From the NCBI RefSeq assembly GCF_036507355.1, contig NZ_AP027877.1: 64,000 nt of DNA; one strand, given 5' to 3'. The translations under genes were made by a program, and so were the position numbers. Below, piece after piece: positions 2,844 through 10,509 of the stretch. Numbering within the stretch: position 1 is the stretch's first letter; each line of letters starts with the position of its first letter. The DNA comes from Escherichia coli (GTDB lineage Bacteria; Pseudomonadota; Gammaproteobacteria; Enterobacterales; Enterobacteriaceae). The notes below the pieces were generated by a model. The model was given only the letters and a program-made list of their open reading frames with translations. It had not been told where the DNA came from and made no database searches.

Positions 2844-3601
2844 TTATGGCAATGGGTTATTGGCCCGACGCGCCAGCCACTCTTTAATTTGCTGGCGATG
2901 CAGGCTAACGGAACGACCTACGACAACGACGATAAGTAGCGCACCGGAAAGGGCGCTGGACACCTGATTTGGCACTCCTGCCATTTGCAAACCTTGTTGC
3001 AAATATCCCACTAATAAAACCGCAATGGCGGTGCCGATAATGGAACCGGAACCACCATAAATATTGGCACCGCCAAGCACCACGGCGGTGATGGCGGGCA
3101 TCAGAAACGACGCACCGAGATCGGAACGTGCTGAACCAAAATACGACACCAGCAGCACAGCGGCGACCGCAGACGCCAGCCCCGTCATGGCATAGAGCGC
3201 ACATAAGGTACGGTTAACTGGAATCGCGCTATAAAGCGCCACGCGCGGGCTTTGCCCAATCAAAAACACGTTACGTCCGGCATGGGTTTTATGCAGCCAG
3301 AGCCAGAAAACGAGGAGACATATCAGGAAGATAATCAGCGGAACGGGGAGCCCCAACACATCCAGGTTAGCGAAATCTGTAAACGCCATCGGGAATCCAC
3401 CAATACCTTCGTACCCCGTCGCTCCGACCATCCCGGAAAGCAGCAGGGCGCTTCCGGCAAACAGATACAGCGTGCCAAGCGTAATCACCAGCGGGTTAAC
3501 TTTGGTATAGATAATTAATCCGGCGTTGATCAGCCCGCACAATGCGCCGAGCAGTAAGGTCAGGAGAATCGCCAGCGGCATCGGCACACCACTTTGAAAC
3601 A
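2844..3601 (-). pseudogene. lsrD: lsrD 3' fragment (C-terminal ~250 codons of the AI-2 ABC permease), cut off from its 5' end by the transposon
   Basis: ORF 2844..3587 is a polytopic permease C-terminus. Together with 9242..9481 it sums to 993 nt (330 codons plus stop) once the 5-bp duplication is counted once. Confidence 0.85.
3597..3601. repeat. 5-bp target-site duplication AAACA (left copy)
   Basis: Identical AAACA immediately outside both terminal inverted repeats (3597-3601 and 9242-9246). Confidence 0.8.
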
Positions 3602-3639
3602 GGGGGAACCGCAGAATTCGGAAAAAATCGTACGCTAAG
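3602..3639. repeat. left 38-bp terminal inverted repeat of the transposon
   Basis: GGGGGAACCGCAGAATTCGGAAAAAATCGTACGCTAAG; 35/38 match to the reverse complement of 9204-9241. Confidence 0.85.
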
Positions 3640-3790
3640 CTAACGGTGTTCTCGTGACAGCTCTTTGACTAGGCTTTCTAAGGCCATTCTGATAGCCCTG
3701 ACTTCCTGAAAAGCCATGGCTAAAATTTGTGCGGCTAAAAGGGATAACCGATGGTAAAGTAAGTTATCCCTGTCGAGATACTGAAAAGCG

Positions 3791-5368
3791 TTATCCTCGT
3801 TTTTCCCAAAACTGTTTTGCCAGTTCGCTCAGAGCGCTAGTTAACTGAGCGACAGATTTCGCACTTTGCAAATTATTCTGCCCGGTCTGTACATTGGTAT
3901 CAGCAGCATCGCGTATATTGATAATACTGCGGTTTATGTCTTCACTTACTGCTCCCTGCTGCTCGACCGCAGTCGCTATTTGCGCGTTCATGTCGGTAAT
4001 TTCGTTAACGCGTTGGCCAATTCCATCAAGAGCTGTAGCTGCTTCCTCTGCGTGAGCTACACTCGTGTGCGCTTGCCGACTACTTTGCTCCATGACTGTA
4101 ACAGCGGATTGCGCTCGCTCTTGTAGAGCGCTGATCATGCTTTGAATATCCGTTGTCGATTGCTGTGTGCGAGCAGCAAGACTGCGAACCTCATCGGCGA
4201 CAACAGCAAAACCACGCCCCTGCTCACCAGCACGCGCGGCCTCAATTGCTGCGTTGAGTGCCAACAAATTCGTTTGCTCGGCGATCCCTCGTATAACGTC
4301 AAGAACTTTTGATATCTCGTTACTTTGACCTTCAAGCTCATGAATAACCTGAGTGGCTTGCCTAATTTCACCTTCAAGGGCAGTGATTGACTGGCTTGTG
4401 TGGGCTACCAGACGCTGGCCAGATGCCGTCTCAGTGTCTGCTCTTCCGGCCGCATCTGCAGCATGCTGTGCATTGCTCGCAACCTCTTGAATGCTTGCCA
4501 CCATTTGGTTTACTGCCGTTGCTATTTGATCTGTCTCTGCCTGCTGCTCAACTGTAAGTACATTGCTTGACTCAATATCCTTTAGTAGGCCTCGGGTGTG
4601 TTCGCTAAGCCGATTTGATGCATCACCTATGCGACCTACTATGGCGCCTGTTTCAGCTTGCATCATTCGTAAAGCAAACTCTATTTGGCCAAACTCATCG
4701 GTGCGCCCAGTGTAGAGGGATTGACTTAATGGGTTATTGGAAATATTCTTGGCTCTTTCAACCAGTCTTCCAAGAGGAGAGAGAATAGCCAAAACACTAA
4801 CAGAGCTTAAGCTTCCTGACATTAAAGTGGCTAACAATAAGCTGCTTATTGATGTATCAGTAAGCATGCCGGCAGCCATTGCGCTTGATATAATACTACC
4901 CCATATGAGCAAGAGTATTTTCACGGAAAAGCTAGCAGCCAATTTCGGCCTCGCGGCCTTCCCGCTTCTCAATTGAGCATATAATTTTTCCGCAGCCAAA
5001 ACCTGCTCAGGTTCAGGCTTGGTCCTTACAGACTGGTATTCAACAATCGAACCATTCTTAGCTATTGGCGTTACATAAGCACTTACCCAATAGTGGTCGC
5101 CATTTTTACAGCGATTTTTTACTAGCCCCATCCATGAGCGGCCAGATTTTAATGTACTCCACATATGCTCAAATGCAGCAGGCGGCATATCTGGGTGTCT
5201 TACGATGTTGTGAGGCTGGCCTAATAGTTCTTCCTCAGTGAAACCACTGATTTTAATGAAGTCAGGATTAACGTACGTGATATGGCTTTGAGGGGAGGTA
5301 GTCGAAAGAATATTGGCATCTTTTGGGAGTTCTAAGTTTCGACCCGTCACTGGTAAATTCTGGCGCAT
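3791..5368 (-). CDS. methyl-accepting chemotaxis protein with N-terminal PAS domain (525 aa), transposon cargo
   Basis: PAS-like N-terminus ([10 protein letters not shown]...[12 protein letters not shown]), hydrophobic segment, conserved MCP signalling core ([38 protein letters not shown]). Confidence 0.8.
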
Positions 5369-5677
5369 AAGAACCTCAAGGGTTGGCTGTTTTATTTTAT
5401 TGTTTTCGGCATTAAGCCCAATTTCTTGAGCGTTACGATAAAGCTAGCATGGAAACGATAGGTGCAAGCAAGTTAAGGGTTGCATCGCGCATGTCAATCT
5501 AGGCTATACCCTAACTTGATGTCAGGCAGGGCCGCGCCGCTTCGTCAGAATAGAGTCTGCTTTCCCATTTTTTGACACATGCCCGCGAAGGTTATAGATT
5601 TCAGCCTGACAGAAATGGGCTTTGAGGCACAACGGAACAGAAAGTGCACTTAAGCCGCCTTCAACCAAGGAGACATC
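5369..5677. promoter_or_regulatory. putative res (resolution) site and divergent promoter region between chemoreceptor gene and tnpR
   Basis: Intergenic position typical of res in Tn21/Tn1721-type elements; inverted repeats TGTCAGGC / GCCTGACA near 5520 and 5605. Subsites not mapped. Confidence 0.4.
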
Positions 5678-6238
5678 GTGCAGGGGCACCGCATCGGCTA
5701 CGTCCGGGTCAGCAGCTTTGACCAGAACCCGGAACGCCAGCTGGAACAAACCCAGGTGAGCAAGGTGTTCACCGACAAGGCATCGGGCAAGGACACCCAG
5801 CGCCCCCAGCTCGAAGCGCTGCTGAGCTTCGTCCGCGAAGGCGATACAGTGGTGGTGCACAGCATGGATCGGCTGGCCCGCAACCTCGATGACCTGCGTC
5901 GCTTGGTACAGAAGCTGACTCAGCGCGGCGTGCGCATCGAGTTCCTGAAGGAGGGCCTGGTGTTCACTGGCGAGGACTCGCCGATGGCCAACCTGATGCT
6001 GTCGGTGATGGGGGCCTTCGCTGAGTTCGAGCGCGCCCTGATCCGCGAGCGGCAGCGTGAGGGCATCGCCTTGGCCAAGCAGCGTGGCGCGTACCGGGGC
6101 CGCAAGAAAGCCCTGTCCGATGAGCAGGCTGCTACCCTGCGGCAGCGAGCGACGGCCGGCGAGCCCAAGGCGCAGCTTGCCCGCGAGTTCAACATCAGCC
6201 GGGAAACCCTCTACCAGTACCTCCGCACGGACGACTGA
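5678..6238 (+). CDS. tnpR: serine recombinase, Tn3-family resolvase TnpR (186 aa)
   Basis: Resolvase N-terminal catalytic motif (GYVRVSSFDQNPERQ), C-terminal HTH; close to Tn21/Tn1721 TnpR. Confidence 0.9.
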   Translation: MQGHRIGYVRVSSFDQNPERQLEQTQVSKVFTDKASGKDTQRPQLEALLSFVREGDTVVVHSMDRLARNLDDLRRLVQKLTQRGVRIEFLKEGLVFTGEDSPMANLMLSVMGAFAEFERALIRERQREGIALAKQRGAYRGRKKALSDEQAATLRQRATAGEPKAQLAREFNISRETLYQYLRTDD

Positions 6239-6241
6239 CAC

Positions 6242-9208
6242 ATGCCGCGTCGCTTGATCCTCTCGGCCACGGAGCGGGACACCCTGCTTGCGCTGCCGGA
6301 AAGCCAGGATGACCTGATCCGCTACTACACCTTCAACGACTCCGACCTGTCGCTGATCCGCCAGCGACGCGGCGACGCCAACCGCCTCGGCTTCGCCGTG
6401 CAGCTCTGCCTGCTGCGCTACCCCGGTTACGCGCTGGGAACCGACAGCGAGCTGCCCGAGCCGGTCATCCTGTGGGTGGCGAAGCAAGTCCAGGCCGAGC
6501 CGGCGAGCTGGGCAAAGTACGGCGAGCGCGACGTGACCCGTCGCGAGCATGCCCAGGAACTGCGCACCTACCTGCAACTGGCCCCGTTCGGCCTGTCCGA
6601 CTTCCGCGCCCTGGTGCGCGAGCTAACCGAGCTGGCCCAGCAGACCGACAAAGGCTTGCTGCTGGCCGGTCAGGCCCTGGAGAGCCTACGGCAGAAACGA
6701 CGCATCCTGCCGGCGCTGAGCGTGATTGACCGGGCCTGCTCGGAAGCCATTGCGCGAGCCAATCGGCGGGTCTACCGCGCCCTGGTCGAACCACTCACGG
6801 ACTCGCATCGGGCCAAGCTGGACGAGCTGTTGAAGCTCAAGGCCGGCAGCAGCATCACCTGGTTGACCTGGCTGCGCCAGGCACCGCTGAAACCCAACTC
6901 TCGGCACATGCTGGAACACATCGAGCGGCTGAAGACATTTCAGTTGGTGGACTTGCCCGAAGGCCTGGGCCGGCACATCCACCAGAACCGCCTGCTCAAG
7001 CTGGCCCGCGAGGGTGGGCAGATGACGCCCAAAGACCTCGGTAAGTTCGAGCCGCAGCGCCGCTACGCGACCCTGGCCGCCGTGGTGCTGGAGAGCACCG
7101 CGACCGTGATCGATGAGCTGGTCGATCTGCATGACCGCATCCTGGTCAAGCTGTTCAGCGGCGCGAAGCACAAGCATCAGCAGCAGTTCCAGAAGCAGGG
7201 CAAGGCGATCAACGACAAGGTGCGCCTGTACTCCAGGATCGGCCAGGCGCTGCTGGAAGCGAAGGAAAGCGGCAGCGACCCCTATGCCGCCATCGAGGCG
7301 GTGATTCCCTGGGACGAGTTCACCGAGAGCGTCAGCGAGGCCGAGCTGCTGGCCCGGCCGGAAGGCTTCGACCACCTGCACCTGGTCGGCGAGAACTTCG
7401 CCACCCTGCGCCGTTACACGCCGGCCTTGCTGGAGGTGCTGGAACTGCGCGCCGCGCCGGCCGCGCAAGGCGTGCTGGCAGCCGTGCAGACCCTGCGTGA
7501 GATGAACGCCGACAACCTGCGCAAGGTGCCGGCCGATGCACCCACGGCCTTCATCAAGCCGCGCTGGAAGCCGCTGGTGATCACCCCGGAAGGCCTCGAC
7601 CGGAAATTCTACGAAATCTGCGCCCTGTCCGAGCTGAAGAACGCCCTGCGCTCCGGCGACATCTGGGTCAAGGGCTCGCGGCAGTTCCGCGACTTCGACG
7701 ACTACCTGCTGCCGGCCGAGAAGTTCGCCGCACTCAAGCGCGAGCAGGCCCTGCCCCTGGCGATCAACCCGAACAGCGACCAGTACCTGGAAGAGCGTTT
7801 GCAGCTGCTGGACGAGCAGTTGGCCACCGTCACCCGCCTGGCCAAGGACAACGAGCTGCCCGATGCCATCCTCACCGAGTCAGGGCTGAAAATCACCCCG
7901 CTGGATGCGGCGGTGCCGGATCGGGCGCAGGCGCTGATCGACCAAACCAGCCAGTTACTGCCGCGCATCAAGATCACCGAACTGCTGATGGACGTGGACG
8001 ACTGGACGGGCTTCAGCCGCCACTTCACCCACTTGAAGGACGGGGCCGAGGCCAAAGACAGGACGTTGCTGCTGTCCGCAATCCTCGGTGATGCGATCAA
8101 CCTCGGGCTGACCAAGATGGCCGAGTCGAGCCCCGGCCTGACCTACGCCAAGCTGTCCTGGCTGCAAGCCTGGCACATCCGCGACGAAACCTATTCGGCG
8201 GCCTTGGCCGAGCTGGTCAACCACCAGTATCGCCACGCCTTTGCCGCCCACTGGGGCGACGGCACGACCTCATCCTCCGATGGCCAGCGCTTCCGCGCGG
8301 GTGGCCGGGGCGAGAGCACCGGGCACGTCAACCCGAAGTACGGTAGCGAGCCGGGACGGCTGTTCTATACCCATATCTCCGACCAGTACGCGCCGTTCAG
8401 CACCCGCGTGGTGAATGTCGGCGTCCGCGATTCCACCTATGTGCTCGACGGCCTGCTGTACCACGAGTCCGACCTGCGGATCGAGGAGCACTACACCGAC
8501 ACGGCCGGCTTCACCGATCACGTCTTTGCCCTGATGCACCTGCTAGGCTTCCGCTTCGCGCCGCGCATCCGCGACCTCGGCGAAACCAAGCTGTACGTGC
8601 CGCAGGGCGTGCAAGCCTACCCGACGTTGCGCCCGCTGATCGGCGGCACCCTGAACATCAAGCACGTGCGTGCCCACTGGGACGACATCCTGCGCCTGGC
8701 CAGCTCGATCAAGCAGGGCACCGTCACCGCCTCGCTGATGCTGCGCAAGCTCGGCAGCTACCCGCGCCAGAACGGACTGGCCGTGGCCCTGCGCGAGCTG
8801 GGCCGGATCGAGCGCACGCTGTTCATCCTGGACTGGCTGCAAAGTGTTGAACTGCGCCGCCGCGTGCATGCCGGCCTGAACAAAGGTGAGGCGCGCAACT
8901 CGCTGGCCAGGGCGGTGTTCTTCAACCGCCTTGGGGAAATCAGGGATCGGAGCTTCGAGCAGCAGCGCTACCGGGCCAGCGGCCTCAACCTGGTGACGGC
9001 GGCTATCGTGCTGTGGAACACGGTGTACCTGGAACGCGCCACCCAGGGGTTGGTCGAGGCCGGCAAGCCGGTGGACGGCGAGCTGCTGCAATTCCTGTCG
9101 CCGCTGGGCTGGGAGCACATCAACCTAACCGGCGATTACGTCTGGCGGCAGAGCCGCAGACTGGAAGACGGGAAGTTTCGGCCCTTACGGATGCCCGGAA
9201 AACCTTAG
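6242..9208 (+). CDS. tnpA: Tn3-family transposase TnpA (988 aa)
   Basis: 988-aa ORF, typical Tn3/Tn21 transposase length; 3' end runs into the right inverted repeat, as is usual in this family. Confidence 0.9.
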
Positions 9209-9241
9209 CGTACGATTTTTTCCGAATTCTGCGGGCTCCCC
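9204..9241. repeat. right 38-bp terminal inverted repeat of the transposon
   Basis: CTTAGCGTACGATTTTTTCCGAATTCTGCGGGCTCCCC; reverse complement matches the Tn1721-type IR. Confidence 0.85.
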
Positions 9242-9246
9242 AAACA
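9242..9246. repeat. 5-bp target-site duplication AAACA (right copy)
   Basis: Same pentamer as 3597-3601, directly abutting the right IR. Confidence 0.8.
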
Positions 9247-9481
9247 GTACGCCCAATGCAATGGCGCAGAGGCCGATGGTCGAACCAAACGAAATATCGA
9301 TCCCGCCACTGACAATCACCATCGTCAGCGGTAGGGCGACAATGCCAATGCAGATAAAGTCACTGGTGCTGAACAGCAACATATTGAGATCTAACATCCG
9401 CGGGTTAATTGCACCAAATGCGACAATCTCAATAACGAGCAGTGCGGCAAGAGCCAGTTCCCAACCGTAGCGAATACGCAT
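9242..9481 (-). pseudogene. lsrD: lsrD 5' fragment (N-terminal ~80 codons)
   Basis: Reverse-strand ORF begins [30 protein letters not shown]..., then reads into the transposon IR. Confidence 0.85.
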
Positions 9482-10509
9482 TATGCGGCCTCCCGTTTTT
9501 TACCTGACGAAGCGGGTTTAACGGATGGCGGTGGCGTCATAAAGCGGGCATATTTTTGCCGCCGTAGATTACGTTCCAGCGCACAACGCAGGCGTCCATC
9601 AAACACCAGCACCACCAGTAGCACGAGGCCCGCGATAAAATCGTTCCACCATGCCGGAATGCGCAACAGCACCAGTACGCTATCGATCTGCGTCAGGAAC
9701 CATGCGCCGAGTACCGCACCGATGATCGCACCGGAACCGCTGAGCAAACTAATGCCGCCCAGCACGCAGGCTGCAATTGCTTTCATCTCCAGCCCGGTAC
9801 CGGTCTGGTTGGGGATAAAACCAATCTGCGAAGCAAACACAATTCCCGCCAGTGCCGCCATGCAGCCGTTCAACGAAAATGCCACAATGCGAATGGCTTC
9901 CGTACGAACGCCCAGTTGACGAGCGCCCTGTAAATTATCGCCCGTGGCATAAAAACTGCGTCCAAACGCCGTCTTCGCCAGCAGCCAGGCCATAAATGCC
10001 ACCAGAATTATTGTTAACCAACCAATTGCTGAAACGCCAAGCAGCAGCGGGGCGGAGAGCTGTTTCAGTTCGGCGGGTAACCCCTCAATCCATTTACCGC
10101 CAGTCCACAGCAACATGATGCCTCTGTACAACCCTAACGTGCCAAGGGTGGCAACAATGGCAGGGATTTTTAGCCACGCGACCAGGACACCGTTGAAAAA
10201 TCCTGCGAGCAAACCAAGCAGTAAAGTCGCGACACAAGCAACAGGTAGTGAATACCCCGCGTTCAGTAACATCCCCAACAGCACCGCGCACATTCCGGTA
10301 ATCGAACCCACTGAAACATCAATATTGCGCGTAAGCATTACCAGCGTCGCGCCCATTGCCAGCAGGATCAGGATTTGCGCGCTGCTATAAACCATGGTCA
10401 GCGTTTGCACACTTAAATACTGGCGGTCGAGAAAACCGGGTAATACAAACAGCAGCACCACCGCCAGCAGTGCCGTGATTTCACGGTTGTTCTGAATAAA
10501 CTTCAGCAT
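9481..10509 (-). CDS. lsrC: AI-2 ABC transporter permease LsrC (342 aa)
   Basis: 342-aa polytopic membrane ORF between lsrA and lsrD; length matches LsrC. Confidence 0.9.

Follow-up and report, generated by a model that had tools for sequence, protein, structure and literature searches.

An almost certainly intact Tn1722 res site between mcp and tnpR on an Escherichia coli chromosome

The 309-bp intergenic spacer at 5369-5677, between the divergent genes mcp (minus strand) and tnpR (plus strand), almost certainly contains the intact cointegrate-resolution (res) site of the transposon Tn1722, at 5492-5611. Positions refer to the window, that is, the whole 64,000-nt stretch of DNA that was analysed, and the coordinates of the open reading frames flanking the spacer were confirmed. 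A res site upstream of tnpR in a Tn1721-type element had been proposed in an earlier note on this DNA, and this proposal is borne out by 100% identity to Tn1721/Tn1722 copies and by conserved dyads. The res of Tn1721/Tn1722 is already known and long characterised; the importance of the site as a discovery is small, given that the Tn1721 res was defined by biochemical work in 1985 and that the sequence here is identical. Its value lies in annotation, chiefly the labelling of 5492-5611, within a chromosomal Tn1722, as a functional site of recombination.

The enclosing transposon

The spacer is enclosed by a complete Tn3-family transposon of 5,640 bp (3602-9241). Its 38-bp terminal inverted repeats, at 3602-3639 (plus strand, the mcp end) and 9204-9241 (minus strand), are 92% complementary as a pair, and the repeat has only these two matches in the 64-kb window and none in shuffled sequences. 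Each repeat abuts a copy of the target-site duplication AAACA, the left one at 3597-3601 in lsrD and the right one at 9242-9246. The order of parts, namely terminal repeat, mcp, res, tnpR, tnpA and terminal repeat, matches that of Tn1722/Tn1721, for which publications give mcp followed by res, tnpR and tnpA (PMC4541600, PMC13367494). Over its whole 5,640 bp the element shows 100% identity to copies of Tn1722/Tn1721 ("TnAs1"), which number in the hundreds on E. coli chromosomes and plasmids and whose annotations read "Tn3-like element TnAs1 family transposase", methyl-accepting chemotaxis protein and recombinase; the spacer itself is 100% identical to the copy on pFBAOT6 (NC_006143) and to others. 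Judged by its sequence, the element is Tn1722, the 5.6-kb transposition core of Tn1721, an identity that rests on the Tn1721/Tn1722 copies in the compared collections. Because only two terminal repeats occur in the window, the core is present alone and the tet(A) half of Tn1721 is absent; neither a second res nor a further Tn1721 end was found in the 64-kb window.

In comparison with Tn1721/Tn1722 (X61367; TnAs1 in ISfinder and PGAP), no sequence difference from the compared copies was found, and only the chromosomal location in lsrD is particular to this element. The insertion splits this permease gene of the E. coli lsr (autoinducer-2 uptake) operon, leaving flanks at 2844-3601 and 9242-10509, and a search of 5,426 complete E. 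coli genomes did not find the exact lsrD::Tn1722 junction. The best match of the flanks to known E. coli has 99.1% identity.

The passenger gene mcp (orfI; 3791-5368, minus strand) encodes a 525-aa PAS-HAMP-MCP signalling chemoreceptor with profile matches to PF00015 (6.9e-44), PF08447 and PF00672, and PGAP names it methyl-accepting chemotaxis protein in identical copies. Its ribosome-binding site, GAGG on the minus strand, lies just 5' of the ATG at 5368. The region upstream of mcp that falls outside res (5369-5491) has 42% GC, and the plasmid collection holds no divergent relatives of it, the matches being either identical copies or distant PAS-coding ones. On the other side of the spacer, tnpR (5678-6238, plus strand) starts with GTG and encodes a 186-aa serine resolvase with a C-terminal HTH_7 and matches to PF00239 (2.9e-39) and PF02796. 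The protein is 82% identical to the TnpR of Tn21. It also shows full-length homology to the Tn3 and gamma-delta resolvase structures, for which DNA complexes have been solved (1GDT, 5CY1), at E values of about 1e-23 to 1e-25, a distant-homologue level far below its likeness to the Tn21 TnpR; within its GYVRVSS stretch, Ser12 lines up with the serine that is catalytic in the gamma-delta resolvase. The gene tnpA (6242-9208, plus strand) encodes a 988-aa Tn3-family DDE transposase (PF01526, 3.4e-155; NF033527, 1289 bits). Thus tnpR and then tnpA are co-linear on one strand, and the gene that diverges from res is mcp.

Three subsites upstream of tnpR

The tnpR-upstream regions of eight Tn21-subgroup elements were aligned, comprising the window, Tn21 (pYT2, L002), L003 and L008-L012. 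The alignment shows three shared, conserved blocks separated by variable spacers, each block forming a dyad of YGTCA-type half-sites. Together the three dyads span 120 bp (5492-5611), and the one closest to tnpR is site III. Site I (5492-5521, 30 bp), assigned as the place of crossover, reads TGTCAATCTAGGCT-AT-ACCCTAACTTGATG, with the central AT at 5506-5507 and arms that match at 9 of 14 positions; its family pattern has a single match in the 64 kb and none in shuffles. The accessory site II (5543-5577, 35 bp) consists of CGTCAGAATAGAGT ... rc TGTCAAAAAATGGG (rc, reverse complement), ends on the right in TTGACA and has arms matching at 8 of 14 positions, and GTCAG.ATAG ... TTGACA is invariant in all eight elements. 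The accessory site III, beside tnpR (about 5588-5611, about 24 bp), reads AAGGTTATAGATTTCAGCCTGACA, with GCCTGACA as its right arm. Its symmetry is weak, with only 3 of 14 arm positions matching here and only the GTCA core matching in relatives, and the block AAGGT.ATAGAT...CCTGACA is invariant across the eight elements. Sites I and II are separated by a spacer of 21 bp and sites II and III by one of 12 bp, which gives centre-to-centre distances of 53.5 bp and 40.5 bp, respectively. These edges were drawn from symmetry and conservation rather than from published footprints and may shift by a few bp; the least certain are the left end of site III (5588 or 5590) and the conserved TGTCAG just to the right of site I.

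The anatomy agrees with what has been reported for the characterised systems. According to PMC13367494 and PMC12217951, which cite Rogowsky et al. 1985, the res sites of Tn21 and Tn1721 were determined by experiment; each has three subsites, and strands are exchanged at the centre of site I. For Tn1721, both papers cite Rogowsky et al. 1985 for resolvase footprints and for the resolution of directly repeated copies. The res of Tn501 is likewise found upstream of tnpR, and its site III is the subsite closest to that gene (PMC7157771).

The earlier note had drawn attention to short inverted repeats in the spacer as possible resolvase subsites, and this idea stands only in part. The perfect 8-bp inverted pair, TGTCAGGC at 5520-5527 and GCCTGACA at 5604-5611, is 76 nt apart and both copies lie in or at res. 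However, the pair delimits no subsite, since the plus-strand left copy covers the two final base pairs of site I together with the TGTCAG that is conserved outside it (with GATGTCAG conserved in the alignment), at the right edge of site I, whereas the other copy is the right arm of site III. As a stand-alone signal the pair was rejected, as at least one perfect 8-bp inverted repeat arises in 47% of dinucleotide-preserving shuffles of the 309 bp. What the two copies have in common is YGTCA, which occurs five times against 0.67 expected, always within 5492-5611; five occurrences were reached in 5 of 5000 shuffles, and the positions are invariant or nearly so in the eight Tn21-subgroup elements. 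On this sequence comparison, the pair reflects a shared recognition motif. A further candidate half-site was considered and rejected: AGCAAGTTAAGGGT at 5467-5480, 12 bp upstream of site I, resembles the right-arm half-site CATCAAGTTAGGGT of site I, and the 10-nt inverted repeat that it forms with that arm is equalled in 22% of shuffles.

The chance level of the 8-bp repeat, together with promoter-like hexamers on both strands, is what would be expected of an ordinary divergent-promoter region in which the repeat is accidental or serves as the operator of another regulator and no site-specific recombination occurs. We consider this very improbable. The sequence is identical to that of Tn1721, for which PMC13367494 reports an experimentally determined res, the three conserved dyads are common to Tn21 and its relatives, and natural reciprocal recombinants cross over at the centre of site I, as set out below.

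Relation to other resolution systems

The site has the features of a Tn21-subgroup res, lying upstream of tnpR-tnpA in a Tn3-family element and having three subsites and an adjoining serine resolvase gene. The res of Tn21 (pYT2, AB605179, L002) is likewise located upstream of co-linear tnpR-tnpA and has the same three subsites at the same spacing, so that the alignment runs gap-free from site I to site III. The two differ in their spacers and in several half-site bases; the left arm of site I, for example, is CGTCAGGTTGAGGC in Tn21 and TGTCAATCTAGGCT in the window. From the end of site III to the tnpR start codon there are about 20 nt in Tn21 versus 66 nt in the window, and the upstream neighbour in Tn21 is tnpM/urf2, co-directional with tnpR, whereas in the window it is the divergent mcp. 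Recombination between the Tn21 site and that of Tn1721 occurs in nature.

Mer and integron carriers of the Tn501/Tn1403 type (L003, L008, L010, L012) are 77-84% identical to the window across sites II and III and tnpR. Their homology to the window begins at site I, and to its left stands another module (urf2, lspA or an integron). The Tn501-like L003 also has a counterpart of the long tnpR leader of the window. In the window, a step in GC content falls at the centre of site I, from 46.9% (3640-5506) to 65.2% (5507-9203). This step and the homology to mer-type relatives that starts at site I fit the joining of an mcp module to a tnp module at res, and the res would explain the sharp change in GC from 47% to 65% at 5506/5507.

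Tn3/gamma-delta (Tn1000) also has a serine resolvase and three subsites, of which site III adjoins tnpR, and its crossover takes place at the two central bases of site I (PMC7157771); in its resolvase, number of subsites and central crossover it works like the res described here. The half-site sequences of the two systems differ. In Tn3, moreover, tnpA and tnpR diverge from res, whereas both are co-linear downstream of it in the window, so the arrangement is not of the Tn3/gamma-delta type. Measured from centre to centre, sites I and II lie 53 bp apart in the Tn3 res, close to the 53.5 bp in the window, and sites II and III about 34.5 bp apart versus about 40.5 bp.

Crossover position in natural hybrids

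Partial, near-identical plasmid matches to the spacer start at a few recurrent positions, the largest class at about 5501. In the Salmonella plasmid pR18.2256_182k (L001, 1440-1690) and in pAPEC-O2-R (L014, 3501-3603), the sequence on the left is that of Tn21 (intI1, tnpM/urf2) and the sequence on the right, from tnpR onward, is that of Tn1721. The switch between parents falls between the diagnostic bases 5505 and 5516 (5506-5515), inside ATACCCTAAC, an interval that includes the central AT. Such Tn21-left/Tn1721-right hybrid sites were found in 798 plasmid records (at least 80% of a 103-nt junction query covered), many of which are likely to go back to a single event or a few, so that the counts overstate independent events. 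The reciprocal junction, with the Tn1721 mcp side joined to the right half of Tn21, was found in up to 93 records at the same threshold (at least 80% of a 103-nt query, assembled in silico). One of these (L013, 3501-3615) shows 100% identity to the reciprocal junction along the full 103 nt, its left part being the mcp side and its right part Tn21 res; full context was inspected in three hybrid records, namely L001, L014 and L013. As hybrid and reciprocal junctions were both found, both products of a site I crossover exist in nature. The change of parent within 5506-5515 in hybrids and reciprocals alike is indirect evidence that strands are exchanged at the centre of site I.

Hybrid transposons of Tn21 and Tn1721 are already on record, as in Tn7714 (PMC11332342) and the O104:H4 island (PMC4326458). 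The Tn21 stretch of L013 is 78 bp long and ends at another junction. A third hybrid res is carried by pTQ17-tet(X4) (L007, NZ_ON390815.1, 2380-2560), with the left arm TGTCAGTCTGGGCT, which differs from Tn1721 at two positions; its upstream DNA is unrelated and lies beside an ABC-F-type ATP-binding gene.

Transcription signals and the tnpR leader

Divergent promoters had also been suggested for the spacer, and a promoter consensus scan returned two sites, one on each strand, versus 0.4 expected; the comparative support extends to the tnpR promoter and not to the mcp one. The divergent promoters are consensus matches only, a reasonable but unproven reading in which the tnpR match is good and conserved and the mcp match modest. 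The putative tnpR promoter (5572-5600, plus strand; TTGACA-17-TAGATT) matches the consensus at 10 of 12 positions. The -35 hexamer coincides with the right arm of site II and the -10 hexamer with the left arm of site III, and relatives retain both, a conservation that is inseparable from that of the binding sites. It is plausible that TnpR, when bound to sites II and III, would repress its own gene through this near-consensus promoter, which the two sites overlap.

Site I may in addition serve as the operator of a leftward promoter through which TnpR controls mcp, a reading that would add to the res assignment rather than replace it and that we regard as rather unlikely. The putative mcp-directed promoter inside site I (5525-5496, minus strand; CTGACA-18-TAGATT) takes its -10 hexamer from the Tn1721-specific left arm, and Tn21 has no equivalent. 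Control of this kind would parallel the repression of tnpA by the Tn3 resolvase, and also the toxin-antitoxin modules of other Tn3-family elements. Passenger toxin-antitoxin genes of the Tn3 family are placed beside site I in every case examined (PMC7157771). The match, however, is speculative, with just 9 of 12 positions and an 18-nt spacer, the implied leader, from a predicted start near 5489, would be about 120 nt long, and the plasmid collection contains no divergent mcp-bearing relatives for a check of conservation. Quite doubtful, too, is the fuller proposal of a leftward promoter at 5525-5496 with a -10 specific to the mcp-side arm, by which the resolvase would control both mcp and itself. 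If true, mcp would be part of a regulated transposition module and not simple cargo.

The tnpR leader (5612-5677, plus strand) comprises 66 nt and contains the ribosome-binding site AAGGAG at 5667-5672. Of the seven aligned relatives, six, Tn21 among them, lack it and show a gap of about 54 nt, and its one counterpart is in the P. aeruginosa relative L003. A leader missing from most relatives might point to control of tnpR or mcp by an RNA structure that the repeats specify, be it a leader, an attenuator or a small RNA. This reading is hardly credible and was rejected on the Rfam and folding results: no Rfam family came close to its threshold (best score 21 bits versus a cut-off of 80), and no unusual RNA fold was found, the folding energy being no better than that of shuffles (z = 0.27). 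The two repeat copies, moreover, are separated by 76 nt, and most of their sequence precedes the point, near 5607, at which tnpR transcription is predicted to begin.

Proposed function and significance

The reading of 5492-5611 as the res of Tn1722 implies a mechanism that can be outlined by analogy. Tn3-family serine resolvases act as dimers on three dyad subsites and cut site I through a serine-DNA link. Replicative transposition by TnpA would fuse the donor and target replicons and leave two directly repeated copies of the transposon. TnpR dimers, encoded just downstream, would then occupy subsites I, II and III on each copy, and the accessory sites II and III of both copies would interwrap in supercoiled DNA and thereby activate the dimers at site I. 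These dimers would cut both strands at the central AT (5506-5507), rotate and exchange the halves and religate them, so that the replicons separate. As this is the only res present here, it would stay inactive until another res of the Tn21 type comes into the cell.

Related resolvases of the Tn21 subgroup would recognise the Tn1722 res as well, which could lead to module swaps between different transposons, and the site may also be a target for "res hunter" elements of the Tn402/Tn5053 type, for example class 1 integrons. The locus is therefore one at which an incoming Tn21-family element, class 1 integron or Tn5053-type element could recombine or insert, and recombination and insertion events at res assemble multiresistance regions. 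The earlier suggestion of a recombination hotspot is accordingly upheld by both the natural hybrid res sites and the integron insertions.

Insertions and truncations at res

In pWLK-NDM (L004, 2390-2520), a class 1 integron abuts, with its IRi end, the position equivalent to 5544 in a Tn1722 copy, which places the insertion at 5543/5544, at the start of site II. In pHS17-127 (L003, 1440-1540), IRi lies in the right arm of site I in the res of the Tn501-like relative. These IRi ends within res match the "res hunter" behaviour of Tn402/Tn5053 elements, and insertion of Tn5053 into the Tn1721 res has been shown experimentally (PMC7765201). Other breakpoints in the spacer recur in plasmids and are not specific to res, namely the IS26 truncations at 5580 and 5605 (L005, L006) and position 5423, the boundary of the KPC-2 "Tn1722-based" unit (PMC4541600).
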